Virus record (IMG/VR): IMGVR_UViG_3300036796_000279
Location: 1-35,155 of that record
Direction: 5' to 3' (one strand)
DNA from: a virus
Taxonomy: Duplodnaviria; Caudoviricetes
DNA length: 35,155 nucleotides
In this document: positions 10,418-29,172 of the stretch, one piece after another
How the letters are laid out: each line of letters opens with the position of its first letter
Position numbering within the stretch: the stretch's first letter is position 1
Made by a program: the position numbers and the translations under genes
Notes under the pieces: model-generated
The model's database searches: none
What the model was told of the DNA's origin: nothing
Seen by the model: the letters and a program-made list of their open reading frames with translations, nothing else

Positions 10418-11197
10418 ATGAAACTTGAAGCATCATTGAAGCATTTTAGCCCGCAGGGGCTGGCCTATACAGATTCGGCCAAATCCACTTCACCGGACCG
10501 GATCACCGGCACCGATATCATGGCCGCCCTTGGCTCTACCGCGTCAAAGGCAAAGTTTGGGCTTTGGGTATTCCTGGGCAAAAACGGCATCAGCTCCGGG
10601 GATGAGCAGAGAGCTGTTCAACAGCTTGCCAGCATCGCGCTGGAGTTCGCGCCAAAGAACGTACGCAAAGCAGCTGGGGGTCAGTTGAGGCAATGCATGC
10701 TCATGATGGCCCGCTTTGCCTTTACTGAGTATTCGCGTTCGGCGGCCAGCACAACGGACTGCAAACCCTGCAGCGGGAAAGGGATGATAGAGGCCTGGGA
10801 AGACGTTACCCGGTATCCTGGTTATGTCGGCGCGGATGGTGAAGAGAAAATTACCCCGTGGATCGAAAGGCAGTTGGTTAAAAAGCAATGCTCTCACTGT
10901 GAGGGTAAGGGCGTTACTTCGGCCAGATGCCGCTGCAAAGGCACTGGCACAGTGCTTGACCGCAAGGCCACCAGCGAACGTGGCGCACCGGTATTCAAAG
11001 AATGCGAACGTTGCACCGGGAAAGGGTTTGCTGGCATGCCATCGACAAACGTCTATAAAGCGATCCTGAGCCTTATTCCTGATTTGCACGTCAGGACGTG
11101 GACTCGCAACTGGAAGCCGTTCTATGACGAGCTGGTGAAGGAATGTTACGTTGCTGAGGGTAAGGCTGAGTCTGAATTTATGAAAGCGACTAAATAA
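10418..11197 (+). CDS. Q: Late antitermination protein Q (Zn-finger type)
   Basis: MKLEASLKHFSPQG..ITGTDIMAALG; CxxCxGxG repeats; TWTRNWKPFY; directly upstream of lysis genes. Confidence 0.9.
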   Translation: MKLEASLKHFSPQGLAYTDSAKSTSPDRITGTDIMAALGSTASKAKFGLWVFLGKNGISSGDEQRAVQQLASIALEFAPKNVRKAAGGQLRQCMLMMARFAFTEYSRSAASTTDCKPCSGKGMIEAWEDVTRYPGYVGADGEEKITPWIERQLVKKQCSHCEGKGVTSARCRCKGTGTVLDRKATSERGAPVFKECERCTGKGFAGMPSTNVYKAILSLIPDLHVRTWTRNWKPFYDELVKECYVAEGKAESEFMKATK

Positions 11198-11239
11198 TTG
11201 CCAATGGCAACAAAATTTTGCATTTTTGATGCATATAGC

Positions 11240-11269
11240 TTGATTTTGTCCGAAGTTGTCGTGTAAGCT
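11240..11269 (+). promoter_or_regulatory. Putative late promoter pR'
   Basis: TTGATT-N18-TAAGCT directly after Q and before terminators. Confidence 0.5.
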
Positions 11270-11313
11270 TCTAATCATGGAGTGTTGCGCCTGAAATGAC
11301 AACGCTCCCGATA

Positions 11314-11370
11314 GCCCGCCACCGTGCGGGTTTTTTTTCATTAAAGGGCTGCCATCGGGCGGCCTTTTTT
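11314..11370 (+). terminator. Two tandem intrinsic terminators (tR'-like)
   Basis: CCCGC..GCGGG-T8 (11314-11338) and GGCTGCC..GGCGGCC-T6 (about 11347-11370). Confidence 0.8.
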
Positions 11371-11410
11371 GTTTCCCTCACACAGCACCCGCTTAGCGAG
11401 GTGAGAGATC

Positions 11411-11752
11411 ATGAAAATGCCACATACCCCGACTAACTGGCCTGACTGGCTTGAACTATTTCAGAGCTGGTGGCGCGGAGAAACGCCGCTGGGCGCTGTT
11501 CTAATGGCGTTCATCATGGCTGCCCTGCGTATTGCATATACCGGAGGCGGCTGGAAAAAAATGCTGCTCGAGGGATTGCTCTGTGGAGCGCTGACGCTGA
11601 CGGTGGCCTCGGGGCTTGAATACCTGGAATGGCCGAAATCAATCTCTATCGCTATCGGCGGTGGCATTGGTTTTATTGGCGTAGAGCAGTTCAGAAAGCT
11701 TGTACTGAACGTGATTAACATACGTTTTGGAGGCGGTAATGCAGCAAAATAG
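11411..11752 (+). CDS. Lambda S-family holin
   Basis: MKM dual-start motif, three hydrophobic segments, GGGIGFIGVE. Confidence 0.9.
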   Translation: MKMPHTPTNWPDWLELFQSWWRGETPLGAVLMAFIMAALRIAYTGGGWKKMLLEGLLCGALTLTVASGLEYLEWPKSISIAIGGGIGFIGVEQFRKLVLNVINIRFGGGNAAK

Positions 11753-12155
11753 CCCTCGCGGCATTCGAAATAATAACCCGGGCAATATTCGCTGGGGCGA
11801 TGAATGGAAAGGTCTGGTATCAAAACCACAACGAACCGATAAATCATTTTGCCAGTTTACCGGCCCTGAATACGGTATCCGGGCGATGGTCGTTATTCTG
11901 CGCAACTATCAACGCAAGTATGCCCTGAACACTATCAGCGGCATTATCCATCGCTGGGCACCGCCGAACGAGAACAACACTCAGGCATATATCGATAGTG
12001 TTGCCCGGGCTTTAGGTGTGGAGGCAGACCAGCGAATTGATGTGACCGACAGCAGGGTAATGATTCCATTGCTGGAAGCCATCATTAAGCATGAGAACGG
12101 CCAGCAGCCTTACAGCTTTGATGTATTCGTTCGTGCTGTCGATCTGGCGGGCTAG
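11739..12155 (+). CDS. Endolysin (RGIRNNNPGNI-type lysozyme-like)
   Basis: PRGIRNNNPGNIR, RWAPPNENNT, IIKHENG; between holin and Rz; ATG 11739 with GGAGG. Confidence 0.85.
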   Translation: MQQNSPRGIRNNNPGNIRWGDEWKGLVSKPQRTDKSFCQFTGPEYGIRAMVVILRNYQRKYALNTISGIIHRWAPPNENNTQAYIDSVARALGVEADQRIDVTDSRVMIPLLEAIIKHENGQQPYSFDVFVRAVDLAG

Positions 12156-12157
12156 CC

Positions 12158-12616
12158 ATGGTATTAGCGCTAATCAAAGAGTACTGGAGAGTTTTCGCTT
12201 TAGGGATGCTGCTCCTGATGCTGCTGTTCACAGCAGAACTGGCATCGAGTGAGAAGAAGAGAGCCGATGCCGCTATCACAGAGCGCGACGAAGCAAAGGC
12301 CACCATCGCCGACATGCAGACCCGCCAGCGCGATGTGGCCGCTCTCGACTCGAAATACACTCAGGAACTGGCCGATGCCAAACAGACTATTGAAGAGCTG
12401 CGTGATGCCGTTGCTGCTGGTGATAAGCGGCTGCACCTCAACGCCACCTGCCCAGTGCGTAACTCCACCAGCACCCCCGGCGTGGATGATGTTGCCGCAC
12501 CCGGACTTACTGACGCCGCTGAACGGGATTATTTCCGTCTCAGGGAGCGAATCGAAACCAGCAACAAGCAAATAGCAGGGCTGCAGGAGTACATCAGGCA
12601 GCAGTGTTTAAGATAA
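12158..12616 (+). CDS. Rz: i-spanin
   Basis: N-terminal TM; QRDVAALDSKYTQELADAK..LQEYIRQQC. Confidence 0.9.
   Translation: MVLALIKEYWRVFALGMLLLMLLFTAELASSEKKRADAAITERDEAKATIADMQTRQRDVAALDSKYTQELADAKQTIEELRDAVAAGDKRLHLNATCPVRNSTSTPGVDDVAAPGLTDAAERDYFRLRERIETSNKQIAGLQEYIRQQCLR
12375..12575 (+). CDS. Rz1: o-spanin lipoprotein embedded in Rz
   Basis: +1 frame within Rz; lipobox LVISGC; Pro-rich PPAPPAWMM..PDL. Confidence 0.85.
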   Translation: MPNRLLKSCVMPLLLVISGCTSTPPAQCVTPPAPPAWMMLPHPDLLTPLNGIISVSGSESKPATSK

Positions 12617-12637
12617 GCCGAAAGGCGGGAGATAGTT

Positions 12638-12844
12638 ATGACTTTAGAAGAGCGTGTTGAAGCTCTAGAAGCGGATATGACTAAGATGAATATTCAGCAG
12701 CAAGAAGCTGATGCAGTGAGGGAAGTAGCGAGAAAGACTACTATTGAGGTGATTGCAAATGCGCGTCGCCCTGGCGGTATGTTGAATGCGGCCCAGATTC
12801 AGGCCGCTGAGTATAAATCTAGGTTCGGTATTAATCGCGGCTAA
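12638..12844 (+). CDS. Small coiled-coil protein with a tape-measure C-terminus-like motif
   Basis: GGGAG RBS; AVREVARKTTIEVIANARRPGGML. Confidence 0.7.
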   Translation: MTLEERVEALEADMTKMNIQQQEADAVREVARKTTIEVIANARRPGGMLNAAQIQAAEYKSRFGINRG

Positions 12845-13046
12845 TTTGTTTTAGGTTTGCAACCCATTCCTGCATTGGTTTGTTATCAACTTCAGATAGC
12901 TCAGCTATTAATTGTTTACGTGAGCTAGGATCAAGCTTAAGAGCAATAGCTAAGACTATCGTCTTTAAATCGTTAATCTCTGAGGCTGTAGATTCAGGGG
13001 TTGCAGTCGAAGAAGTAAAAGTAAAATTATGTTCGCTACTTTCCAT
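12831..13046 (-). CDS. Antisense moron gene, 71 aa
   Basis: AAGGA RBS; AT-rich; convergent 14-nt overlap with 12638-12844. Confidence 0.7.
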   Translation of the reverse strand: MESSEHNFTFTSSTATPESTASEINDLKTIVLAIALKLDPSSRKQLIAELSEVDNKPMQEWVANLKQISRD

Positions 13047-13164
13047 TTCTAGTCCTTATTTCAGAGGTAATCAGCCATCCCTCATTGTTGTGTGCGTCCA
13101 TGCCCTCACATGGACGGGCTGAGGTTCAATGATAGCCAGGAGCAGGAGAAATGGACACTAACCA

Positions 13165-13190
13165 GGGCCTCGCAATAGCGGGGCTTTTTT
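13165..13190 (+). terminator. Intrinsic terminator
   Basis: GCCTCGC-AATA-GCGGGGC-T6. Confidence 0.75.
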
Positions 13191-13197
13191 ATGCGCA

Positions 13198-13293
13198 TCG
13201 CACGCGCCAATCAGAGAGTCTTTCAGTAGTGAGCCTGGGTAATGCCGTTACCTCTCGGGCGGTATTGCCGTGCGACAGGCTCACACCTCAAAG
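13198..13293 (+). ncRNA. Putative structured RNA leader (nested stems with possible pseudoknot)
   Basis: GTGAGCCTG/CAGGCTCAC stem, inner GGTAATGCCG/CGGTATTGCC stem, bulge GTGCGA complementary to upstream TCGCAC. Confidence 0.5.
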
Positions 13294-13303
13294 GTAAACC
13301 ACT

Positions 13304-13480
13304 ATGCAACTTGGCAAGAAAAGCCGGAAGGGTAGACGCTGCATTATGCGGACTGACGCCACTCTAATCGTTAATAAGCGCGGAAAGGTTGAGGTGGTGC
13401 TTGGTTCGAATATCGACGAAAGCCACAAGCTCCGCACCGGAACCCCGTCAACTTTTAATCAATTAGGTAAAGCGTTATGA
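13304..13480 (+). CDS. 58-aa basic protein (not in ORF track)
   Basis: ATG 13304 after AAGG; TGA overlaps the ATG at 13477 (ATGA). Confidence 0.6.
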   Translation: MQLGKKSRKGRRCIMRTDATLIVNKRGKVEVVLGSNIDESHKLRTGTPSTFNQLGKAL

Positions 13481-14007
13481 AAAGAATTCAACTTAAGGAC
13501 GTAATGTCCAGCCTGCGTATCGTAGCCAATGAAACTGGCTATGAAGTTCACAACGCCGCCGGCTCCGCTAAATATGACGCTTGGGGTTATCGTCGTGAGG
13601 TTAACGGCATCCCTGAATACTTCCCGGATAAAATCAGCATGGAAGGCAAGGCAAAATCATCCAGCGCAAGCCAGATAAAAGTAAATCTGAATCTCGATAC
13701 TACGGATGCCCAGAAAGCGCTGGATGATATTCAGAAGATTATCAACGATAGCAGCCAGGCATTTGAATCATTTCAGGAGCGCGTCAGGAAGGAAACAACA
13801 AGCGTGACATGGAGTGGTTCTCTCGCGCTTGGTATCACTCGCGACATTAATGCATTGATTGAAAATGGTGTGGCCTCTAATGCAGAAAGTGAGCGTATTA
13901 AGGCAGTTATGGAAGAGGCAACAAAAAAAGCCGTTACTGATGCGGTGGCCACGGTCCTTAAAGACTTCCAAACTCGCGGACCTCTACGCCGGGCACTGAA
14001 CATTTAA
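13477..14007 (+). CDS. Hypothetical protein resembling both ends of the tape measure protein
   Basis: C-terminus MEEATKK..D..LKDFQTRGPLRRALNI versus TMP MQEAARK..D..LEDFQNRGQGRRLLGV. Confidence 0.75.
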   Translation: MKRIQLKDVMSSLRIVANETGYEVHNAAGSAKYDAWGYRREVNGIPEYFPDKISMEGKAKSSSASQIKVNLNLDTTDAQKALDDIQKIINDSSQAFESFQERVRKETTSVTWSGSLALGITRDINALIENGVASNAESERIKAVMEEATKKAVTDAVATVLKDFQTRGPLRRALNI

Positions 14008-14019
14008 TCAGAGGTATCT

Positions 14020-14619
14020 ATGCAGGTCACTATTGACGGTGTCCAGTATGCGCCTGTCTGCAATTCAGTTGGAGAGAAGAAATGCGGCGTTAATGGATGC
14101 TCCCAAAAACATCATGCCCGCGGCTTATGCCAGACTCACTATTTTAGACAAAAGCAATATGGACGATTTGAATTACTGGCTCGGCACGATTTAGAGCAGC
14201 GCTTTTGGTCTAGGGTTGAAAAAGGTAATGAATGTTGGATCTGGAATGGAGTAATCACTCCCCAAGGTTATGGTAATTGGACTTGGCGAGAAAATGGAAA
14301 TCTTAGAACTGATTCTGCACATCATTTCGCTTTCATATTATCTGGCAGAAAAATACCTGATGGTTACCATCTCGATCACCTTTGTAGAAACCGCAGATGC
14401 TGCAACCCAGATCATCTTGAGGCGGTAACGCCCAGGGAAAACACCTTACGTGGAATTGGGCCCAGCGCAGAAAATGCCAGGAAAACACATTGCAAGCGAG
14501 GACATGAGTTCACGGTCAGCAATACATACCTGAAAAATGGGAAGTATGGCGTATTAAGAGTCTGCAGACAGTGTGCTGCTGAATCGGCCAGGAAAAGGAG
14601 AGCGTCATGTCGCCGGTGA
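14020..14619 (+). CDS. HNH homing endonuclease
   Basis: RFWSRVEK..ECWIWNG, AHHFAF, LDHLCRNRRCCNPDHLEAVT..EN, KTHCKRGHEF; AT-richer than flanks. Confidence 0.9.
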   Translation: MQVTIDGVQYAPVCNSVGEKKCGVNGCSQKHHARGLCQTHYFRQKQYGRFELLARHDLEQRFWSRVEKGNECWIWNGVITPQGYGNWTWRENGNLRTDSAHHFAFILSGRKIPDGYHLDHLCRNRRCCNPDHLEAVTPRENTLRGIGPSAENARKTHCKRGHEFTVSNTYLKNGKYGVLRVCRQCAAESARKRRASCRR

Positions 14620-16070
14620 GAGTGAGTATCGACGGTGTTGATTATGCGCCCTGCAATAACTCCAGTCGTATTGGTGTGTGCATAACGACCCACAATCGCG
14701 CTGACGTTCTGCGCCGCGCTCTTGAGCAGCATCAGCAGTTCTTACCGCCTGGCGCGCTGGTGGTTGTTATCGACGACGGCTCTACCCCGGCGGCCACAGT
14801 TCCCGAGAACGTGCAACTGATCCGGCATGAGAAGTCGCTGGGCATCGTGGCTTCAAAAAACCGAAGTCTCGAATCGCTGGTGGATGCCGGCTGCGAGCAT
14901 TTGTTCCTTTGGGATGATGATGCCTGGCCGACTGCGCCGGGCTGGTGGGCTCCTTACATCGAATCCCCAGAGCCTCACCTGGCTTATCAATTTCATGATC
15001 TGGCCGGGCCGCGAAAGCTTAACGATATGGCCGTGTTACACCGGGATGATAAGCACGTCGCTTACACCGGACAACGCGGCGTCATGCTGTATTACCATCG
15101 CAGCGCCATTGAAGCGGTCGGTGGTTTCGATCCTGTCTACGGTCGAGGCATGTACGAGCATCCCGATTTGGCACTGCGCATCCACAACGCCGGGCTGACG
15201 TCATGGGCGTTTGCTGATGTAGTTGGTTCGGCTGCGCTGATTCATTCGATGGACGAACACGAAGAAGGTGTGCGCTCTATCCCGCGGCCTGAGCGTGAGG
15301 CGCTGGCGAAAGCCAATGCGGTCACCTACAGCGCCCGGCGCGACAGCGGATACACGGCTTATGTTCCGTTCCGCACCCCGCAGGACGTTGTGATCACCAC
15401 GCTGCTTACGAGCCAGCCAGACCCACAGCGTCCAACGAAGATGGCTGCTGATCCTGCTTTGCTGCAGGCGTGGGCATCGTCTATTCGTGGCGCTGCTGCT
15501 GTCGTGCTTGCCGATGAGCTGGAGACGGCGCCCGGCGGAGTCAGTCTGGTGAGTGTAGCTGTGCTGGAAATGAGCCCGTACTTTGCGCGCTGGCTGCATA
15601 TCTACCAGCACCTGCGCGATCATCCTGAGTATCGAAACGTATGGTGCACCGATGGCACAGACGTTGAGATGCTTAGAGAGCCCTGGGCAGAAATGGAACC
15701 CGGCATGATTTACGTTGGTTCCGAGCACAAGGTTTACGCAGATGAGTGGATGAAGGCCAATCACCACGGCAAAGCTTACGGTGAGTTCATCGACCGATAC
15801 CGTGACGCGCAACTGCTTAACGCGGGGCTGCTAGGTGGCAGTCGGGCTGACGTGATGGCGTTCGCCCACTACATCATCCGATTTCATTACCTGCAGACCA
15901 GCCATCGTTACTGGAAGATGGAGACGGCCCCGGCCACGCTCGTTGATATGGGTGCGTTCGGTATGGCGGCGAAGTCGTTCGGTGACCGGGTTGTGACCGG
16001 GCCGAAGGTCAACACGATCTTTAAGTCCGATGGGATCGGGAAGGAGTGCGCCTTTTGGAAACACAAGTGA
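14607..16070 (+). CDS. Two-domain glycosyltransferase (GT2 N-domain plus second GT-A-like domain)
   Basis: ITTHNR, VVIDDGS, GIVASKN, FLWDDD (DxD), GGFD..YG..EH.DLA.R; C-domain WCTDGTDV and LLNAGLLGG; no TM segment or signal peptide evident. Confidence 0.9.
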   Translation: MSPVRVSIDGVDYAPCNNSSRIGVCITTHNRADVLRRALEQHQQFLPPGALVVVIDDGSTPAATVPENVQLIRHEKSLGIVASKNRSLESLVDAGCEHLFLWDDDAWPTAPGWWAPYIESPEPHLAYQFHDLAGPRKLNDMAVLHRDDKHVAYTGQRGVMLYYHRSAIEAVGGFDPVYGRGMYEHPDLALRIHNAGLTSWAFADVVGSAALIHSMDEHEEGVRSIPRPEREALAKANAVTYSARRDSGYTAYVPFRTPQDVVITTLLTSQPDPQRPTKMAADPALLQAWASSIRGAAAVVLADELETAPGGVSLVSVAVLEMSPYFARWLHIYQHLRDHPEYRNVWCTDGTDVEMLREPWAEMEPGMIYVGSEHKVYADEWMKANHHGKAYGEFIDRYRDAQLLNAGLLGGSRADVMAFAHYIIRFHYLQTSHRYWKMETAPATLVDMGAFGMAAKSFGDRVVTGPKVNTIFKSDGIGKECAFWKHK

Positions 16071-16642
16071 AGTATGTGGTGGTCGGTCATCATGCTCGCC
16101 AGGCTCAAGCCGAAATACTGGCCAGCTCTCTTGGTGCTCATCTGCTGATTGACGACGGCGACCATGGAGCCAACTGGAATCACCGCCGTGCGCTTGAGTG
16201 GGCCGCCGGCCAGACCTGCCGGGTTGTAGTCCTCGAGGATGACGCTGTGCTTGTTGATGGCTTCACCGATAAGGTTACTGATTGGCTGGAACGGTTCCCC
16301 GATGCTCTGCTGAGCTTCTACCTGGGCACGGGCCGTCCGCCACAGTACCAGATGCAGATAGCCGAGCGACTTATCATTTCCGATAAGAGCCGATTGGACT
16401 ACATCACATTGCCAAGGTTGATTCACGGCGTCTGCTACAGCGTGCCGCCGCAGGCCATTGATCTCGTGCTCTCACGCTGGGATGCCAGCAAAGCCGCTGA
16501 CTATGCAGTGGGTGACGCGCACGGCGGCGCTGTTATCTATCCGTGTTACTCACTCGTTGACCATGCAGATGGTGAGCCGGTAGAGCGGTCGGTGGATGGC
16601 ATGCCGCGCACCGAGCGCCGTCGAGCATGGAGACTGGCATGA
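16067..16642 (+). CDS. GT25-like glycosyltransferase
   Basis: NHRRALEW..VVVLEDDA, SFYLG, HGVCY, SLVDH; GTGA overlap with the upstream GT. Confidence 0.75.
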   Translation: MKYVVVGHHARQAQAEILASSLGAHLLIDDGDHGANWNHRRALEWAAGQTCRVVVLEDDAVLVDGFTDKVTDWLERFPDALLSFYLGTGRPPQYQMQIAERLIISDKSRLDYITLPRLIHGVCYSVPPQAIDLVLSRWDASKAADYAVGDAHGGAVIYPCYSLVDHADGEPVERSVDGMPRTERRRAWRLA

Positions 16643-16992
16643 GCAAAGAACCTCGTATCTACGGGAGCAAGTGGGACAGGCAGAGGGTTAACTTCCTTCG
16701 TGCCAACCCGTTGTGTGTGATGTGCCAGGAACAAGGACGGGTGGCAGCCGCTACGGTTGTAGATCACATCACACCACACAATCTTAAAGAAGCGCTTAGG
16801 TCTGGTGAGCAGCAGGCAATCGCAAAGGCACAGAAGTTGTTCTGGAGCCAAAGCAACTGGCAGCCTCTGTGCAAGCAGCACCACGACTCAACAAAGCAAC
16901 GCATGGAGAAGCGCGGCGTGGAGATAGGATGCACGGCTGACGGCATGCCGCTCGACCCATCCTCTCACTGGTACAGGGGGAGGGGAGGGTGA
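16639..16992 (+). CDS. Terminase-associated HNH endonuclease (HK97 gp74-like)
   Basis: PLCVMC..ATVVDHITPH..FW.QSNWQPLCKQHH; directly before terS. Confidence 0.9.
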   Translation: MSKEPRIYGSKWDRQRVNFLRANPLCVMCQEQGRVAAATVVDHITPHNLKEALRSGEQQAIAKAQKLFWSQSNWQPLCKQHHDSTKQRMEKRGVEIGCTADGMPLDPSSHWYRGRGG

Positions 16993-17080
16993 AAAGTTCA
17001 CCCCTCTCTCGCTAAATGACCGCCGCTCGTGCTTTCTGTGCACAACCGCGAAATGAAAAGTTTTTTTCTGGGAGGTTCCG
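16993..17080. other. Probable cos region
   Basis: Intergenic gap between gp74-like HNH and terS, where HK97-type phages carry cos; GC-rich GACCGCCGC core; cut site not determinable. Confidence 0.45.
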
Positions 17081-17545
17081 ATGGCAGGACGACGCCCGAA
17101 ACCGACCCACCTCAAAGTGGTTACCGGCAATCCGGGCAAACGCAAACTCAACGATAAAGAGCCAACTCCGGCACGAGAAATTCCCAGCCCGCCGGCGCAC
17201 CTGACCGACTGGGGGAAGGTGGCCTGGGGCAAGCTAACCGTTTTGCTGGATGGCATGGGAATTTTGACCGTTGCCGACACGCTGGCGCTCGAGCGACTCT
17301 GTGATATTTACGCCGACATTCTGCAACTTAGGCTGACGATCGCCGATGAGGGCCGGACCTACACCGTGCAGACGGAAGGCGGCTTTTTGATTAAAGCAAA
17401 CCCGGCTGTATCGATGTTGGCCGACGCTGATCGCCGCTTTAAAAGTTACCTGGTTGAATTTGGTCTTACCCCTGCAGCCAGGACGAAGGTGAAAGTTGAT
17501 GGTGGAGAAAAAGAAGAAGACCCGCTCAACCAGTTCTTCGGTTGA
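17081..17545 (+). CDS. terS: Terminase small subunit (P27 family)
   Basis: MAGRRPKPTHLKVVTGNPGKRKLN..NPA..EFGLTPAAR. Confidence 0.93.
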   Translation: MAGRRPKPTHLKVVTGNPGKRKLNDKEPTPAREIPSPPAHLTDWGKVAWGKLTVLLDGMGILTVADTLALERLCDIYADILQLRLTIADEGRTYTVQTEGGFLIKANPAVSMLADADRRFKSYLVEFGLTPAARTKVKVDGGEKEEDPLNQFFG

Positions 17546-19235
17546 CCCAGCCACGCAGTACGCGATGGATGTGGATTCCGGCAAAGAGATCGCCGGCCCC
17601 GATATCCGCAACTCCTGTAAACGACACCTTAAAGATTTGGAGTCATGCCACGCTCGCGGGCTGGCATGGGATCCAGCGGCGGCGCAACGCGCCATCGACT
17701 TTTTCGCCAAAGTGCTAAAGCTCAACGGTGGGGAGTATGAAGGTAAGCCCTTCAATCTGCTGCCGTGGCAGTGCTTTATTGTAGGCTCGATATACGGCTG
17801 GAAAAACTCAGACAACTACCGGCGTTTTCGCATGGTATATGTCGAGTCCGGTAAAGGTTCTGGTAAATCGCCACTTGCCGCGGGTGTAGCTCTTTACTGC
17901 CTGGTTGCTGACAAAGAGCCTCGTGCGGAGGTGTATGCCGCTGCCACGAAAAAAGATCAGGCCATGATCCTGTTTCGCGATGCGGTGGCGATGGTAGACC
18001 AGTCACCGGCGCTGGCGCAGCGAATCAACAAATCAGGCGGTGCCGGGAAAGAGTGGAACCTGGCGTTCCTGCAAACAGGCTCATTCTTTCGGCCTATCAG
18101 TTCTGACGACGGGCAGTCAGGACCACGTCCGCACTGCGCGCTGATTGACGAAATTCACGAGCACAAAAACAACCAGGTGGTTGAGATGATGCGCGCCGGG
18201 ACGAAAGGCCGGCGGCAGGCGCTGATTTTCATGATCACCAACAGTGGCCACGATAAAACCAGTGTCTGTTATGACTATCACGAGTACGGGCGCAAGGTCG
18301 CCGAAGGCTCGATTGATGATGACAGCTTCTTCTCGTTCATCTGCTCCCTCGATGAGGGCGAGGATCCCTTCAAGGATGAAAGCTGCTGGAAAAAGGCTAA
18401 CCCTTCGCTGGGCCACACTTTCACCGACCGCTATTTGCGTGAGCAGGTGACGCAGGCCCGCGGCATGCCGTCGAAGGAAAGTATCGTGCGGCGCCTGAAT
18501 TTCTGCCAGTGGGTGGATGCCGACAATCCATGGATGAGCAGCGATGTCTGGATGGGGTGTGAAGACGATTTCGATCTTCAGGAATTGCAGGGCGAAGAGT
18601 GCTACGGCGGCCTGGATTTGTCGGGTTCGCGTGACCTGACTGCGCTGGCGTTGTTCTTCCCCAAGAAGCGAAAGCTGCTGGTTGAATTCTGGACTCCGAA
18701 AGATACGCTGGCGGAAAGGGCAAAAACAGACCGTGTGCCATATGACGCCTGGGAGAGGGCTGGGTATATCCATACCACGCCGGGTAAGGCTGTGAAATAT
18801 GGCTTTGTGGCAGAACGTATCGCCGACCTTTCGCAGCTGTTTTTCATCAAGGCAATCGCATTTGACCAGTACCGCATCAAATACCTTGAGCCAGAGCTGG
18901 AGGAAGCGTCTGTTTCGGTACCGCTTATTCCGCACGGGCAGGGATATTACAAGGCACAGGAATCCGGCCTGTGGATGCCTCACTCGATTGAGCTGTTCGA
19001 GCAGTGCCTGGATGATGGCGAAATCATCATTAAGACCAACCCCTGCCTTCGCTGGAATGCGGCGTCAGCTGTAACTGAGGCAGATCAGAAAGAAAACCGT
19101 ATCTTTGCCAAGAAAAAAAGCACCGGCCGTATTGACGGTGTGGTGGCTTCAGCTATGGCAATAGGTGCATCTGAAGGTGATGTCACTGACGATGGTGATA
19201 TTGACGACTTCTTCTCACAACCGTTGAGCATGTGA
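17496..19235 (+). CDS. terL: Terminase large subunit
   Basis: LLPWQ.F, Walker A GKGSGKS, Walker B LIDEIHEH, GLDLS, RIDGVVA; start uncertain. Confidence 0.95.
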   Translation: MMVEKKKKTRSTSSSVDPATQYAMDVDSGKEIAGPDIRNSCKRHLKDLESCHARGLAWDPAAAQRAIDFFAKVLKLNGGEYEGKPFNLLPWQCFIVGSIYGWKNSDNYRRFRMVYVESGKGSGKSPLAAGVALYCLVADKEPRAEVYAAATKKDQAMILFRDAVAMVDQSPALAQRINKSGGAGKEWNLAFLQTGSFFRPISSDDGQSGPRPHCALIDEIHEHKNNQVVEMMRAGTKGRRQALIFMITNSGHDKTSVCYDYHEYGRKVAEGSIDDDSFFSFICSLDEGEDPFKDESCWKKANPSLGHTFTDRYLREQVTQARGMPSKESIVRRLNFCQWVDADNPWMSSDVWMGCEDDFDLQELQGEECYGGLDLSGSRDLTALALFFPKKRKLLVEFWTPKDTLAERAKTDRVPYDAWERAGYIHTTPGKAVKYGFVAERIADLSQLFFIKAIAFDQYRIKYLEPELEEASVSVPLIPHGQGYYKAQESGLWMPHSIELFEQCLDDGEIIIKTNPCLRWNAASAVTEADQKENRIFAKKKSTGRIDGVVASAMAIGASEGDVTDDGDIDDFFSQPLSM

Positions 19236-20509
19236 TGGACGATACAAATTACAGCATTGATCTGCGCACAAATAACGGCTGGTGGGCCCGGGTGGCGTCT
19301 TGGTTCGTTGGTGGACGACTGGTGACACCTGAGCAGGGCTCCCAGACCGGGCCTGTTTCTGCCAGTGGCACTCTGGGCGATTCACAGATTACGGATGAAC
19401 GCATCCTGCAGATATCGACTGTTTGGCGATGTGTTTCTCTGATTTCCACGCTAACAGCCTGTCTGCCATTGGATGTGTTTGAAACCGACAAAGAGGACAA
19501 CCGCACCAAGGTTGGATTAAGTAATCCCCTGGCCCGCCTGCTGCGCTACTCGCCGAATCAGTACATGACGGCGCAGGAGTTCCGCGAGGCCATGACTATG
19601 CAACTGTGCTTCTATGGCAACGCATATGCGCTGGTTGAGAGAAATGGTGTGGGGGATGTGGTCAGCCTCCTGCCGCTGATGTCAGCCAATATGGACGTTC
19701 GGCTTGAAGGTAAGCGCATTGTTTACCGCTATCAGCGTGACAATGAATACGCCAATTTTTCCCAACGAGAAATCTTCCACCTTAAAGGGTTTGGTTTTAA
19801 CGGCCTGACGGGGCTTTCGCCTATTGCACATGCCTGTAAATCAGCGGGTGTTGCCGTGGCGATGGAGGACCAGCAGCGGGAGTTTTACGCCAACGGTGCC
19901 AAATCCCCCAAAATCCTCACGACAGGCGACCGGGTGCTGACCAAAGAGCAGCGTACGCAGCTGGAGGAGAACTTCAAGGAGATTGCCGGTGGACCGGTGA
20001 AAAAACGTCTCTGGATCCTCGAGGCGAACTTCCAGGCTCATGACATTGGCGTCAGCCCGCAGGACGCCGAGACAATGACCTCCAGAAAGTTTCAGGTTAG
20101 CGAACTGGCGCGCTTCTTTGGCGTTCCTCCGCATCTGGTTGGTGATGTCGAGAAAAGCACTAGCTGGGGCACCGGGATCGAGCAACAGAACCTGGGCTTT
20201 CTCCAGTACACCCTCCAGCCCTACATTTCCCGGTGGGAAAACAGCATCCAGCGCTGGCTGCTCAAGCCTGATCAGGTCGGCGTGTATCACGCAGAGCACA
20301 ATCTTGATGGTCTGTTGCGCGGTGATTCCGCGTCCCGCGCAGCCTTTATGAAAGCGATGGGAGAAGCTGGCCTGCGAACAATCAACGAAATGCGTCGTAT
20401 GGATAACTGCCCACCGCTGCCTGGCGGCGATGTCGCCATGCGGCAGGCGCAGTATGTACCCATTACTCAACTCGGTAATGACAAGGAGCCCCGCAATGAC
20501 GGGGCTTAA
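19232..20509 (+). CDS. Portal protein, HK97 family
   Basis: VWRCVSLIS, YGNAY, IFHLK, GLSPI, ARFFGVPPHLVG, TINEMR. Confidence 0.95.
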   Translation: MMDDTNYSIDLRTNNGWWARVASWFVGGRLVTPEQGSQTGPVSASGTLGDSQITDERILQISTVWRCVSLISTLTACLPLDVFETDKEDNRTKVGLSNPLARLLRYSPNQYMTAQEFREAMTMQLCFYGNAYALVERNGVGDVVSLLPLMSANMDVRLEGKRIVYRYQRDNEYANFSQREIFHLKGFGFNGLTGLSPIAHACKSAGVAVAMEDQQREFYANGAKSPKILTTGDRVLTKEQRTQLEENFKEIAGGPVKKRLWILEANFQAHDIGVSPQDAETMTSRKFQVSELARFFGVPPHLVGDVEKSTSWGTGIEQQNLGFLQYTLQPYISRWENSIQRWLLKPDQVGVYHAEHNLDGLLRGDSASRAAFMKAMGEAGLRTINEMRRMDNCPPLPGGDVAMRQAQYVPITQLGNDKEPRNDGA

Positions 20510-20526
20510 TTTTTATGGGGGCCACG

Positions 20527-21207
20527 ATGCCTGACATCATCAAAACGCTTTCTTTCGACGAAACGGAAATCAAGTTTGCCGGTGACGGCAAGCAGGGCAT
20601 TTTCGAGGGTTATGCCTCTGTATTCGGTAACACCGACTCGGATGGCGACATCATTCTGCCTGGGGCATTCAAGAACACGCTTGAAACCCAGACCCGCAAA
20701 GTGGCGATGTTTTTTAATCACCGCCAGTGGGAAATCCCGGTGGGTAAGTGGGACAGCATCCAGGAAGACAGTAAAGGCCTGCTGGTGCGCGGCCAGTTAA
20801 CGCCCGGACACAGCGGAGCCTCTGACCTGAAGGCGGCCATGATCCATGGCACGGTTGAAGGAATGTCCATCGGTTTTTCGGTCAATAAGGACGACTACAG
20901 TATTGCCCCTAACGGCGGCTGCATCTTCAAAAATATATCCTGGCTGAGAGAGATCAGCGTCTGCACTTTTCCGGCGAACGAGCTGGCGAGCGTGGATTCG
21001 ATGAAGAGCGTCGATGGGATAGAAACCATTCGTGACGTGGAGAACTGGCTGAGGGATTCAGCCGGGCTTAGCAAGTCACAGGCAGTAGGGCTGATAGCCC
21101 GCTTCAAAAACGCTATTCGGAGTGAGTCTGAAGGCGATCAAAACAAACCCGATATCAGCGCTCTGCTTAAGAGCATTAATGACTTTAATCCGACAGCAGG
21201 AAAATAA
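20527..21207 (+). CDS. Prohead maturation protease (HK97 gp4)
   Basis: FEGYASVF..DSDGD, FFNH, GMSIGF, LREISVCTFPAN. Confidence 0.95.
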   Translation: MPDIIKTLSFDETEIKFAGDGKQGIFEGYASVFGNTDSDGDIILPGAFKNTLETQTRKVAMFFNHRQWEIPVGKWDSIQEDSKGLLVRGQLTPGHSGASDLKAAMIHGTVEGMSIGFSVNKDDYSIAPNGGCIFKNISWLREISVCTFPANELASVDSMKSVDGIETIRDVENWLRDSAGLSKSQAVGLIARFKNAIRSESEGDQNKPDISALLKSINDFNPTAGK

Positions 21208-21210
21208 ACC

Positions 21211-22371
21211 ATGTCAGAACTCGCACAAATCCAGAAAGCCCTCGAAGAGTCCCAGACCAAACTGAAAGGGCTCTTTGATGAGCAGAAACAGCAAATTGAA
21301 CAAAGCGGCACGATCTCGAAACAGTTGCAGGGCGATATGGCGAAGGTCAATGAAGAGATGACCAAGACCGGCCAGCGCCTGTTTGATCTCGAACAGCGTC
21401 TGTCCTCTGGCCCGGATAACCCAGGTGAGAAGAAATCCTTCTCCGAGCGCGCCGCGGAAGAACTCACCAAGTCCTGGAACGGCAGCAAGTCGCACTTCGA
21501 GGCGAAAACCTTTAACAAATCGCTAGGCAGTGATGCCGACTCAGCCGGCACGTTGATTCAGCCGATGCAGGTGCCGGGTATTGTGATGCCTGGTCTGCGT
21601 CGTTTGACCATTCGTGATCTACTGGCGCAGGGCCGCATATCCAGCAACTCGCTAGAGTACGTTCGCGAAGAGTTGTTCACTAACAACGCCGCAAGCGTGG
21701 CGGAAAAGGCGCTGAAACCTGAATCAGATATTACGTTCAGTAAGCAAACGGCAAACGTAAAAACCGTAGCTCACTGGATTCAGGCATCTCGCCAGGTAAT
21801 GGATGATGCGCCAATGCTGCAGTCCTACGTCAATAACCGCCTGATGTACGGCCTGGCGCTGGAAGAAGAACGCCAGTTGCTTAACGGCGACGGCAGCGGT
21901 GACGATTTGGAAGGCATCAACCATGTGGCCACTGCTTATGACACCGGACTGAACGTAGCCGGTGACACGCGCGCAGATATTATTGCCCACGCGATCTTCC
22001 AGGTGACTGAGTCAGAATTCAGCGCATCAGGCATCGTCCTTAACCCGCGAGACTGGCACTCCATTGCGTTGCTGAAGGATAACGAAGGGCGTTACATCTT
22101 CGGTGGGCCGCAGGCGTTTACCCAAAACATTATGTGGGGCCTGCCAGTGGTGCCAACGCGTGCACAGACCCAGGGCACCTTCACCGTCGGTGGTTTTGAT
22201 ATGGCCTCGCAGGTTTGGGATCGCATGGATGCCACCATTGAGGTGAGCCGCGAAGACCGTGACAACTTCGTGAAAAACATGCTCACTATTTTGTGTGAAG
22301 AGCGCCTGGCACTGGCGCACTACCGCCCGAAAGCGCTGATCAAAGGCACCTTTGGCGAACCAACCAGCTGA
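21211..22371 (+). CDS. Major capsid protein, close to HK97 gp5
   Basis: KTFNK/SLGSDADSAG delta-domain cleavage site; AEKALKPES and NFVKNMLTILCEER crosslink motifs; ends GTFGEPTS. Confidence 0.97.
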   Translation: MSELAQIQKALEESQTKLKGLFDEQKQQIEQSGTISKQLQGDMAKVNEEMTKTGQRLFDLEQRLSSGPDNPGEKKSFSERAAEELTKSWNGSKSHFEAKTFNKSLGSDADSAGTLIQPMQVPGIVMPGLRRLTIRDLLAQGRISSNSLEYVREELFTNNAASVAEKALKPESDITFSKQTANVKTVAHWIQASRQVMDDAPMLQSYVNNRLMYGLALEEERQLLNGDGSGDDLEGINHVATAYDTGLNVAGDTRADIIAHAIFQVTESEFSASGIVLNPRDWHSIALLKDNEGRYIFGGPQAFTQNIMWGLPVVPTRAQTQGTFTVGGFDMASQVWDRMDATIEVSREDRDNFVKNMLTILCEERLALAHYRPKALIKGTFGEPTS

Positions 22372-22404
22372 TGAGGGTGGGCGGGGTGACCCGCCCTTTA
22401 GCCT

Positions 22405-22728
22405 ATGAGCATAGATGTACTTACCGTTGTTCCTATTGAAGAGCTCAGGCAGCACGTTGAAATGGACACCGACGACCGCGATGCGGTGATCAAACGCTAT
22501 GCGCAAGCGGCTCTGGATTACTGCCTGCGCTGGTGTGATGACCCTCGCTGGAAATTGGCTACAGATATTCCCGCCCCTGTTGTATCCGCCATGCTGCTGG
22601 TCTTCGGAGATTTGTTCGAGCATCGAACCAGCCAGACCGAGGTTCAGCTATATGCGAATGCTGCGGCAGAAAATCTGATGTTCTCTTGCAGGAACTGGCG
22701 AGGCAGTGTGGAAGAGGAGACATCCTGA
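22405..22728 (+). CDS. Head-tail connector (gp6-like)
   Basis: EELRQH..DD.D..I..Y..AA..AMLL..GDLFEHR; synteny. Confidence 0.88.
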   Translation: MSIDVLTVVPIEELRQHVEMDTDDRDAVIKRYAQAALDYCLRWCDDPRWKLATDIPAPVVSAMLLVFGDLFEHRTSQTEVQLYANAAAENLMFSCRNWRGSVEEETS

Positions 22729-23069
22729 TGGAGCCAGGACGCCTCCGGCATCGTGTCCGGATCGAAGTTAAATCTGACGAACGCGACGAACATGGACAAC
22801 CAAAAGGTTGGGTGAGCCGTGGAGTCGTTGCCGCTGATATACGGTCGGTTACCGGCAAGGAGTTCATTAGCGGAAATGCTGAACGTTCTTCAGTTACAAC
22901 AAAAATTTTTATGCGCTATCGCGATGATGTCAGGGCAACAACAACCCGCTTTGTTGAGATCACCTCCAGCGGGAATGGTCGTGTTTACAGTGTAACTGCG
23001 CCATTGCCTACGCGAGACAGGAGAAACATGGAGGTGCTGTGTACGGAGGACTTCACTCGTGTTCACTGA
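22728..23069 (+). CDS. Head closure protein
   Basis: MEPGRLRHRVRI..DEHGQ..W..V.A.IRSVTGKEF; TGATG overlap. Confidence 0.88.
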   Translation: MEPGRLRHRVRIEVKSDERDEHGQPKGWVSRGVVAADIRSVTGKEFISGNAERSSVTTKIFMRYRDDVRATTTRFVEITSSGNGRVYSVTAPLPTRDRRNMEVLCTEDFTRVH

Positions 23070-23436
23070 CCTTAAATCTGAAATTGAAAGGCTACTTGGC
23101 GTAAACGTTTTTCCGCTGGTGGGCCCCCAGACAGAAAACGAATTTGTTACTTTGCAGTTGGTGAGCGACCCTCAGTTAGAGTCAGGAACCATTCGCACAA
23201 AACTCGTTGCTGCGCGCTGGCAAATCAGCCTGATTTCATCTCTCTACAGCCGAACAGAAGAAATGGACAAAGCGCTCTGGCTGGCCTGGGAAGGACTGGC
23301 GCATGGGTACATTGGCCGATATCCGGTTCAATATGCCCAGCGCGGCGGAGTTTCTGAGAGTTTTGATTCTGACGATGGTGGGAAATACCGTCGGTCCCGG
23401 GATTACATTTTTTACTATCCGGAGGGGGCTTCATGA
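23059..23436 (+). CDS. Tail completion/terminator protein
   Basis: Synteny; FVTLQLVSDP..RWQIS..YRRSRDY. Confidence 0.7.
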   Translation: MFTDLKSEIERLLGVNVFPLVGPQTENEFVTLQLVSDPQLESGTIRTKLVAARWQISLISSLYSRTEEMDKALWLAWEGLAHGYIGRYPVQYAQRGGVSESFDSDDGGKYRRSRDYIFYYPEGAS

Positions 23437-23843
23437 TCCGTATGGAAGTAAAAGGACTCAAAGAGCTTGAGCAGCAACTGGAAGCCCTGGGTGAAAAAGT
23501 CGCTGTGAAAATCCTCGGTAATGCGGGTAAAGAGGCAATGGAAATCGTCAGGGAGGATATGCAGCATCACGCGGGTTATGACGCCAGCAGTGATGGACCG
23601 CACATGCGGGACGGCATCAAAAACAACTACAAAAACCGCATGAAGGATCAGCGGTGGCAGTCAGTCGTAACCATTCGGGTTGGCCCCTCCAAAGAACACA
23701 CCATAAAAGCCCTAGCGCAGGAATTTGGCACTGTAAAACAGGTCGCCAGCCCGTTTATGCGCCCGGCACTGGATTTTAACCGCGCCAAAATACTGCGCAT
23801 TCTTGCGGTAAGCATCCGTGAGGGTATCGAAAATAATCGTTAA
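23433..23843 (+). CDS. HK97 gp10-family tail component
   Basis: VKGLKELEQQL..AQEFGT....SPFMRPALD. Confidence 0.88.
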   Translation: MIRMEVKGLKELEQQLEALGEKVAVKILGNAGKEAMEIVREDMQHHAGYDASSDGPHMRDGIKNNYKNRMKDQRWQSVVTIRVGPSKEHTIKALAQEFGTVKQVASPFMRPALDFNRAKILRILAVSIREGIENNR

Positions 23844-23856
23844 GTGAGGTAGTGAA

Positions 23857-24318
23857 ATGCCAGATCAAAATAAAAGCTCTCCTGAATACGCGATGCTTCC
23901 TGCCGGAACGGTGGTGAAGTGGGGCGCATCCGGCGATGCTGTGGCGGATATGCAGCCGCTGATTAACTGTAAGGCCCTGGGGGCAACGGGCGTCACCGGT
24001 TCCTTTGTTGACTGCACGACGCTCATTGATACGCAGAAGCAGTTTATTTCTGACCTGCCAGAAGGGCCTGAGAAATCCCTGGGATTTGTTGACGACCCGT
24101 CCAACACCAGTTTCACGGCGTTCCTGAATGCGGCCGAGAAACGCCAGACGGTGCAATTCTATGTTCAGCTTCCTAACGGGCGAACGGCGACCATGATCAT
24201 GGCGCTGTCTGGCTGGCAGTTGAACGAAATTACCGCGCCGGCCAGCGACGTTATCCAGGTGACGGTGAACGGCAAGCAGAACAACATTGAGTGGGGCTAC
24301 AGCGAACCGACCAGCTGA
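23857..24318 (+). CDS. Major tail tube protein
   Basis: VDCTTLIDTQKQFISDLPEG, VQLPNG; position before chaperones; ends WGYSEPTS. Confidence 0.88.
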   Translation: MPDQNKSSPEYAMLPAGTVVKWGASGDAVADMQPLINCKALGATGVTGSFVDCTTLIDTQKQFISDLPEGPEKSLGFVDDPSNTSFTAFLNAAEKRQTVQFYVQLPNGRTATMIMALSGWQLNEITAPASDVIQVTVNGKQNNIEWGYSEPTS

Positions 24319-28016: not shown

Positions 28017-28448
28017 GTGAAAGGGATTGGCTTGGTTGTTCTGGTTGTCGGTGTCATATGGGCAATTGTTGCTCTGAATATGGATGTGAGTGTTGCCACA
28101 GGATATGGGAGGGTAAATAATATAGGATTGATGGCATCAAGACAGACTCATTTAATTTTTGCTGGTTTTTTATCTATTGCCGGTATTTTGCTAGTTCTAT
28201 TTGGTGATAAATTTAGCCTGTCCACTATAGAAAGGAAATGTCCTTTCTGTGCAGAATTAATAAGTAAAGAAGCAACAAAGTGCAAGCACTGTGGAATCGA
28301 TGTATCGCAAATTGAAACCCATAATTCAATAGCTGAAGATGTGACGCCTTCTGTAGCTCATGGATGGTTTAGCACCAAGGTAACGATAGGGATTGTCGTT
28401 GGTATATTCGCAGTTATTGTGTTACATATCGTTGTCTATAGAATGTAG
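28017..28448 (+). CDS. Moron: membrane protein with Zn ribbon
   Basis: Three hydrophobic segments; KCPFCAELI..EATKCKHCG; AT-rich. Confidence 0.8.
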   Translation: MKGIGLVVLVVGVIWAIVALNMDVSVATGYGRVNNIGLMASRQTHLIFAGFLSIAGILLVLFGDKFSLSTIERKCPFCAELISKEATKCKHCGIDVSQIETHNSIAEDVTPSVAHGWFSTKVTIGIVVGIFAVIVLHIVVYRM

Positions 28449-28488
28449 TTTGTATTATATTTTTCATGTTGATTTAAGGATGATGATT

Positions 28489-29172
28489 ATGCGCTTCTTG
28501 ATACCACTAACTATTTTGGTAGTACCAACTTTTGCATTTGCTGCTGCAGGAGATCAGACTTTATCTGTTGGGTACACACAGATACATTCATCAGGTTTGA
28601 AAGGATATTACAATCAGGTTGCAAATCTATATAGCGATGTAACAAATAGCGCTGCGTTATATGGCGGTCAAAAATCATCATTAGACATTGATAACTATAA
28701 GCAACCGGAAGGCATGTTCATCAGGTATCGTTATGAATACGATCATAGCCTTGGTGTCGTAGGGTCATTATCATATGCTGTGCAGGATAACAATATAAAC
28801 ACATCAAATGTTTACTCCAGATTTGGTGTGAATTATGAAGATGCATATAAGAACAATATAAGTAGCAACTATTTTTCTGCATTGATAGGACCATCGTATA
28901 GAATAAACAGTTATTTAAGCCTGTTGGCTATGGCTGGCATATCTTATAAAAGTGTAGAAACCAAGATAAAGGCGTTTTCTTACGAGAATGACCGGGTGGT
29001 AAATTCAGGTGCATATTCTGAAAGTGAGCATAAGTTTTCACCAGCTTACAGCCTTGGCGCTCAGGTTAATATCTACCAGGGTCTGGTAATTGATGCGGCT
29101 TATGAAGCATCATCTGGGGGAAGACAATGGAAAACAAACGGATTCACCGTAGGCATCGGTTATAAATTCTGA
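28489..29172 (+). CDS. Ail/Lom/OmpX-family outer-membrane beta-barrel
   Basis: Signal peptide, TLSVGY, RYRYE, GPSYRIN, AYSLGAQ.N, terminal VGIGYKF. Confidence 0.9.
   Translation: MRFLIPLTILVVPTFAFAAAGDQTLSVGYTQIHSSGLKGYYNQVANLYSDVTNSAALYGGQKSSLDIDNYKQPEGMFIRYRYEYDHSLGVVGSLSYAVQDNNINTSNVYSRFGVNYEDAYKNNISSNYFSALIGPSYRINSYLSLLAMAGISYKSVETKIKAFSYENDRVVNSGAYSESEHKFSPAYSLGAQVNIYQGLVIDAAYEASSGGRQWKTNGFTVGIGYKF

Follow-up and report, generated by a model that had tools for sequence, protein, structure and literature searches.

Candidate virion O-glycosylation genes and serine-ended virion proteins in a lambdoid provirus

Described virion glycosylation systems and the enzyme gene pair

The mycobacteriophages Che8 and Corndog, reportedly the subject of Freeman et al. 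in 2023, are said to O-glycosylate their virions and to carry the glycan on a C-terminal serine (Ser). Here we analyzed a 35,155-nucleotide (nt) stretch of viral DNA, record IMGVR_UViG_3300036796_000279 (positions 1 to 35,155; the window), in which two late genes very probably form a virion O-glycosylation system. The small enzyme is predicted to prime the terminal Ser of the capsid, the tail tube and probably the connector, and the large enzyme to extend the first sugar. Four papers cite Che8 gp108-110 and Corndog gp36-38 for virion O-glycosylation (PMC12363180, PMC13445384, PMC12582341, PMC12894461). According to these papers, capsid glycosylation cannot proceed without Che8 gp110 or, in Corndog, gp38 (PMC12363180), the Che8 glycan is linked through oxygen (PMC13445384), and it shields Che8 from antibodies (PMC12363180, PMC13445384). 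The Rita capsid is called glycosylated in PMC11256854, which itself cites a poster, and the Rita genome paper (PMC10508093) contains no passage with "glycosyl" or "glycan". Ten other phages, of unchecked enzyme-gene content, yielded no glycoprotein according to PMC12894461.

The window is a provirus record with a lambdoid layout: the repressor, replication genes, Q, holin, endolysin and Rz are followed by packaging and HK97-type head genes, as assigned with Pfam and PHROGs. The original prediction described two glycosyltransferase open reading frames (ORFs) that are start/stop-coupled ahead of a gp74-like HNH gene, and this arrangement was confirmed. The large two-domain glycosyltransferase (phrog_1579, 487 amino acids, 14607..16070, + strand) shares 4 nt (GTGA) with the small glycosyltransferase (phrog_854, 191 amino acids from a GTG start, 16067..16642, + strand). 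The stop of the small gene overlaps the ATG at 16639 of the gp74-like HNH nuclease (16639..16992, + strand), which marks the position ahead of the terminase genes.

Both enzymes have homologues in the described systems. The small enzyme is 33% identical over its full length to Che8 gp110 (E 9e-26) and to Corndog gp38 (E 5e-19), and 32% identical over its full length to Rita gp103, while the large enzyme is 46% identical to Rita gp101 (E 1e-134). Rita carries the same two-enzyme set in the same order ahead of an HNH gene, and the Che8 enzyme genes likewise directly precede the last HNH gene. The capsids and tail tubes of Che8, Rita and Corndog all end in Ser (KTGS/SDGS and LVGS/KGDS; in Rita, KTGS on the capsid and SDGS on the tube), as do those of the window. 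The features of a mycobacteriophage-type system that could be looked for were therefore all found: a gp110/gp38-family enzyme, adjoining glycosyltransferase domains, and a capsid and tube with a final Ser. The systems differ in that the window belongs to a Gram-negative lambdoid host range, its connector is probably tagged too, and no methyltransferase gene was seen in it. Rita differs in host phylum, and its capsid sequence is unrelated to that of the window.

The two families extend beyond these phages. The phrog_1579 large enzyme matches 611 phage records, 567 of them Mycobacterium phages. The gene pair also occurs in the Klebsiella jumbo phage FBKp24 and its relatives (56% and 47% identity; NC_061421.1, 139828-141897, L477). 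The FBKp24 major capsid protein ends VTPAS; its C-terminal loop lies at the hexamer pore according to PMC9700779, in whose passages glycosylation is never mentioned. The cultured coliphages HK542, ECP1 and mEp390 also carry the enzymes and have capsids close to that of HK97. Among named organisms, Cedecea neteri has the closest match to the small enzyme (92%); most of the named matches are from Enterobacter, and some are from Citrobacter, Salmonella and E. coli. Few E. coli genomes carry the gene (9 of 5426 complete genomes in a DNA search), and a strong match was found in 4 of 401 sampled Enterobacterales species genomes.

Both glycosyltransferase genes lie downstream of the late antiterminator gene Q (10418..11197, + strand) and of the lysis genes, which points to late expression under Q. 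A consensus scan of the + strand found no promoter-like site within 11150-17200 and no terminator-like site past 11665. Neither enzyme has a hydrophobic segment resembling a membrane helix: the highest 19-residue Kyte-Doolittle means are 1.37 (large) and 1.08 (small), compared with 1.73 for the holin. The earlier claims that the pair has no transmembrane segments and is not a gtrABC converter were borne out. Like gtrABC, which is said to be of this kind, the pair consists of glycosyltransferase genes in a temperate enterobacterial phage. It differs in lacking membrane proteins and a flippase, in its position away from the attachment site, and in belonging to the late operon; no GtrA, GtrB or GtrC family match was found among the window ORFs scanned.

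These data bear on the possibility that the enzymes act on lipopolysaccharide (LPS) or some other glycan of the host surface, to exclude superinfecting phages or to change the serotype, and that the Ser ends are unrelated. The N-terminal domain of the large enzyme does resemble cell-envelope GT2 families weakly, and weak phrog_854 matches (E 1e-4 to 1e-9) occur in 66 of 401 Enterobacterales genomes, in genes mostly of 220-300 codons and of unchecked identity. This explanation is very unlikely, given that neither enzyme has a membrane segment, that the genes are coupled within the late operon and lack a separate promoter-like site, and that homologues occur in mycobacteriophages and lytic jumbo phages. 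It also leaves unexplained why the last residue of the capsid and tube tracks the type of enzyme, as described below.

The original description of the large glycosyltransferase as GT2 stood for its N-terminal domain (PF00535, 24.8 bits against a curated cut-off of 23.3, residues 24-110). Its acidic motifs, DDD at 103-105 and DxTD at 349-352, are invariant. The C-terminal domain, putatively a second catalytic domain of GT-A fold, had neither a sequence match in the PDB nor an NCBIfam match, and its feature neighbours were GT_PLOD-bearing clusters (58% at 0.96, a comparison of features only). The label "GT25-like" for the small enzyme proved loose, since the GT25/Glyco_transf_25 profile gave no Pfam match at E 0.01, no NCBIfam match was found, and the fold similarity to COLGALT1 was weak (E 5e-3). 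The motif EDD (residues 57-59) is invariant across 36 homologues of the small enzyme, and its structural model has a GT-A-type topology. In Foldseek, the best PDB match of this model was 2p72, the chlorovirus PBCV-1 glycosyltransferase. That protein, a GT-A enzyme encoded by a eukaryotic virus, is described as taking part in the glycosylation of the capsid; the match is weak (E 8.5e-4, template modeling score 0.37, 11% identity) and is no evidence of a shared family.

Another possible explanation is that the enzymes place sugar on the phage DNA before it is packaged, which would protect it from restriction. The genes adjoin HNH and terminase genes, the PHROG label is "glucosyltransferase", and one distant homologue of the large enzyme weakly matches the glucosyl-HMC transferase family (E 8e-6). 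No T4-type or other modified-base synthesis gene was found among the window ORFs scanned, which are part of the ORFs of a record that is 88% complete. The closest characterized homologues act on virion proteins, and DNA glycosylation would not account for the terminal-residue pattern. We therefore regard it as extremely unlikely.

Terminal serine in relatives with and without the enzymes

The window's major capsid protein (21211..22371, + strand), of the HK97 type and 84% identical to HK97 gp5, ends GTFGEPTS (GAA CCA ACC AGC TGA, 22357-22371), with the predicted acceptor Ser codon at 22366-22368. The tail tube protein (23857..24318, + strand) ends WGYSEPTS (GAA CCG ACC AGC TGA, 24304-24318), with the predicted acceptor codon at 24313-24315. 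The gp6-like head-tail connector (22405..22728, + strand) ends EEETS and the tail terminator (23059..23436, + strand) ends PEGAS, so that all four proteins have a terminal Ser. These endings agree with those originally listed, and the protein identities were supported by Pfam and PHROGs.

To compare relatives, loci were fetched around the capsid genes of three clades and the tube genes of one family, and each was scored for the gene pair. Loci without the pair counted as enzyme-less when they included 3 kb or more of sequence ahead of the terminase, or when the gene was missing from the whole record. For the capsid count, identical capsid genes were merged, and 29 rows of unknown enzyme status and two with the large gene only were left out. 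A terminal Ser was found on the capsid of 227 of 228 relatives with the enzymes, compared with 8 of 58 without them. By clade, the enzyme-carrying counts were 104/104, 79/79 and 44/45, and the enzyme-less counts were 4/26 and 4/32. Tail tubes from three families showed the same pattern (190/194 with the enzymes and 13/45 without). Control genes did not: twenty pooled clusters, comprising portal, protease, terminase, head closure, chaperone, tape measure and similar genes, had a terminal Ser in 22/1628 cases with the enzymes and 2/373 without. The predicted difference between relatives with and without the enzymes was thus found, with the qualification that some enzyme-less relatives keep the Ser. 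The relation is asymmetric: the enzymes imply Ser, yet Ser may persist without the enzymes.

The original prediction regarded EPTS, shared by the window's capsid and tube, as the acceptor tag. The shared ending is real, but it is not conserved. The capsid and tube have their last residue in common in 190 of 194 enzyme-carrying relatives and their last four residues in common in only 5 of 194. Among 423 enzyme-associated capsid and tube ends, GS occurs 349 times, TS 64 times, NS three times and IS once; PTS occurs 14 times and EPTS never. EPTS was therefore rejected as the tag, and the signal, on these comparisons, appears to be the last residue. The tube closest to that of the window (95%) ends NEPGS.

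The connector is a probable third acceptor in the window's lineage, as its family has a terminal Ser in 100 of 151 members from phages with the enzymes compared with 6 of 59 from phages without them; another connector family has none in 69. The tail terminator, whose PEGAS end had also been listed originally, is a doubtful acceptor and was not retained. Its relatives end in Ser or threonine (Thr), with 20 of 49 in its own cluster and 1 of 132 in another terminator family having the Ser end.

In the tube cluster of L031, 117 of 122 enzyme-carrying phages have a short tube form, and 13 of 30 enzyme-less phages have a longer form of about 230-250 amino acids with a candidate immunoglobulin-like domain. 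The glycan and the extra tube domain may be alternative decorations.

Exchange of the small enzyme and the terminal residue

One complete record, L273, has the large enzyme and no phrog_854 gene. In its place is a 180-amino-acid glycosyltransferase of phrog_14179 (L273:2977-3519), which has no BLAST similarity to the window's small enzyme. The L273 capsid ends GVPTT and its tube ends RPATT. Other phrog_14179 loci end similarly: QQTT on the capsid, EETT on the connector and PATT on the tube in clade A, NPTT in clade B, and GGTT in a distant phage. In the three clades, the Thr-ending capsids are 98%, 93% and 81% identical to the nearest Ser-ending capsids.

A profile scan for the phrog_14179 enzyme added 70 loci, giving the set L273, L479, L484, L485, L486 and L495-L564. 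Capsids were found in 36 of the added loci, 26 ending in Thr, 10 in Ser and none in any other residue. Over all phrog_14179-type capsids, 30/40 end in Thr, 10/40 in Ser and none otherwise, whereas none of the 228 gp110-type capsids ends in Thr; the background of terminal Thr is 59/915. When the scanned capsids were grouped into lineages at 50% clustering, 8 of 10 ended in Thr, and the Thr end was found in all 18 scanned capsids whose enzyme was at least 41% identical to the query. Of 21 tubes at the scanned loci, 18 end in Thr, one in Ser and two in Ile. No gp110-like gene was found in the scanned phrog_14179 loci.

The phrog_14179 enzyme also occurs in 142 phage records, mostly phi92- and phAPEC8-like, and the Cellulophaga phage phi12:1 fits the pattern with ends SGT/VGT. 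A metagenome scan gave five loci, apparently repeats of viral loci already in the set, and the 401 Enterobacterales genomes held no strong match to this enzyme.

Because the terminal residue switches when the small enzyme is exchanged, even where the large enzyme is retained, these comparisons point to the small enzyme as the priming, acceptor-choosing enzyme that meets the protein; the large enzyme would extend the sugar. They also bear on whether the terminal Ser is simply co-inherited with the gene pair, the two being linked across the packaging junction, or contributes to the stability of the protein while the enzymes act elsewhere. Such co-inheritance would agree with the lack of significance in the pair tests and with the retention of SSGS by HK97, both described below. 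On the other hand, three capsid clades and three tube families all show the pattern, which is missing from interleaved genes such as portal, protease and terminase. Moreover, where the enzyme is swapped, Ser gives way to Thr, both between capsids that share 81-98% identity and in 8 of another 10 capsid lineages. Neither linkage nor stability readily accounts for a terminal residue that follows the enzyme type, and we consider this explanation highly improbable.

Enzyme-less relatives and the proposed mechanism

Several observations weigh against a virion glycosylation system acting on the last residue. HK97 (NC_002167.1, L160) lacks the enzyme genes, yet its gp5 ends GTFSSGS and its gp6 ends EEGS. 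The SSGS end is kept in six of eight enzyme-less, near-complete HK97-like records (L402, L403, L405, L407, L408 and L410), several of which were merged when capsid genes were de-duplicated. Terminal Ser also persists in the 13 enzyme-less tubes counted above. One enzyme-carrying capsid ends in Ala (L088, whose tube ends ESGS), four enzyme-carrying tubes lack a terminal Ser, and clade B has no enzyme-less member for comparison. The Thr-type enzyme has a homologue in phage phi92 (46%), yet in that phage the capsid ends KLTTA, the sheath TVSS and the tube LTIQ; the Thr-type count covers only the 36 of 70 new loci in which a capsid was located, and phi92-like loci, with no capsid in the fetched flank, fall outside it. 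The large enzyme has no detectable similarity to Che8 gp108 or gp109, and the fold model of the small enzyme is mediocre (predicted local distance difference test score 64).

Since the relatives are not independent, pair tests were run on trees built after dropping the last 12 residues. Ser status changes five times in clade A and three times in clade C. Neither test was significant: the five independent pairs of clade A gave 2.7 changing in the same direction, 0 in the opposite direction and 2.3 unchanged (p 0.25), and the seven pairs of clade C gave 2, 0 and 5 (p 0.5). The tests are under-powered, and the pairs never run opposite to expectation.

The HK97 ends had been used originally as a contrast to the window. 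The GTFSSGS ending was correctly given, but the contrast is misleading, as HK97 lacks the enzymes and still retains SSGS, which is the tag of the family. The Gly-Ser ends on the HK97 capsid and connector are likely a leftover acceptor. Three capsids that are 99% identical to HK97 gp5 (L424, L427 and L428) end FSAD. These ends may reflect a course in which the enzymes were lost first and the tag then decayed. HK633, L383 and L065 carry only one gene of the pair; such single-gene phages suggest that the pair is lost stepwise.

The predicted system of the window likely works like the mycobacteriophage virion glycosylation system. During the late phase of lytic growth, the small enzyme would transfer a first sugar, probably drawn from the host nucleotide-sugar pool in the cytoplasm, to the hydroxyl of the last Ser of the capsid, the tube and probably the connector. 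The two domains of the large enzyme would then add to this sugar, giving a short glycan coat. The linkage would be through oxygen, by analogy with Che8. The recognition signal appears to be a short tail consisting of a small residue and Ser-COOH (GS, TS or NS), with the tail assumed to be exposed; a literature search for a description of the HK97 C-terminus as lying on the outside of the capsid listed nothing usable. The coat would most likely serve the released particle as a general surface shield. Because homologues occur in soil mycobacteriophages and lytic jumbo phages, such a shield is suggested rather than antibody evasion alone. The broader claim that phage glycosyltransferases modify the C-termini of capsid and tube proteins thus has strong comparative support from homology, gene position and residue co-variation, although EPTS as the tag does not.

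The start of the large glycosyltransferase gene falls within the 3' end of an upstream HNH endonuclease ORF (14020-14619), which looks like a homing-type insertion at the 5' end of the large gene. The N-terminus of this ORF copies the first residues of the large glycosyltransferase (10 of 16 identical).

The system could be real in the family and be inactive, or act on only some proteins, in this prophage. The record's 88% completeness, the HNH overlap at the start of the large gene, and the TS ends, a minority form (64/417), would fit this explanation. We give it very little weight, as both frames are intact with their invariant acidic motifs and all four candidate proteins keep the terminal Ser.

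More generally, it is rather likely that a modular code of C-terminal glycosylation operates in tailed phages of Proteobacteria, Bacteroidota and Actinobacteria. Priming enzymes that are unrelated and can replace one another would choose the acceptor (the gp110 family Ser-COOH, the phrog_14179 family Thr-COOH) and share an extending enzyme. The SSGS of HK97 gp5 would be a leftover acceptor, and the HK97 capsid would be the naked form of a normally sugar-coated particle. In the literature searched (titles and the beginnings of abstracts, with few subscription papers and no supplements), virion glycosylation was reported only for mycobacteriophages and for no Gram-negative phage, and no Ser/Thr enzyme swap was reported; the supplements to Freeman et al. 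2023 may list enterobacterial homologues. If the proposed system is correct, virion glycosylation extends to lambdoid phages of Enterobacterales, including HK542, ECP1 and mEp390. Its chemistry, the enzymes behind it and its purpose could then be tested in E. coli K-12 on the capsid that is best studied. A large family of proteins that so far carry the label hypothetical (1812 at 90% clustering) would gain a function, glycosylated phages could be predicted from a single residue, and there would be a natural pair of specificities, Ser and Thr, for a cytoplasmic enzyme acting on the last residue of a protein.

Two minor observations concern insertions. The junction between the two enzyme genes is a hot spot, as 110 of 228 loci carry HNH-like or other small ORFs there; judged by eye, these inserts looked HNH-type or unrelated, and no third sugar enzyme was recognized among them. 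Elsewhere in the window, an insert of low guanine and cytosine content (28017-29172), between the tape measure and distal tail genes, encodes a zinc-ribbon protein and an Ail/Lom outer-membrane protein.

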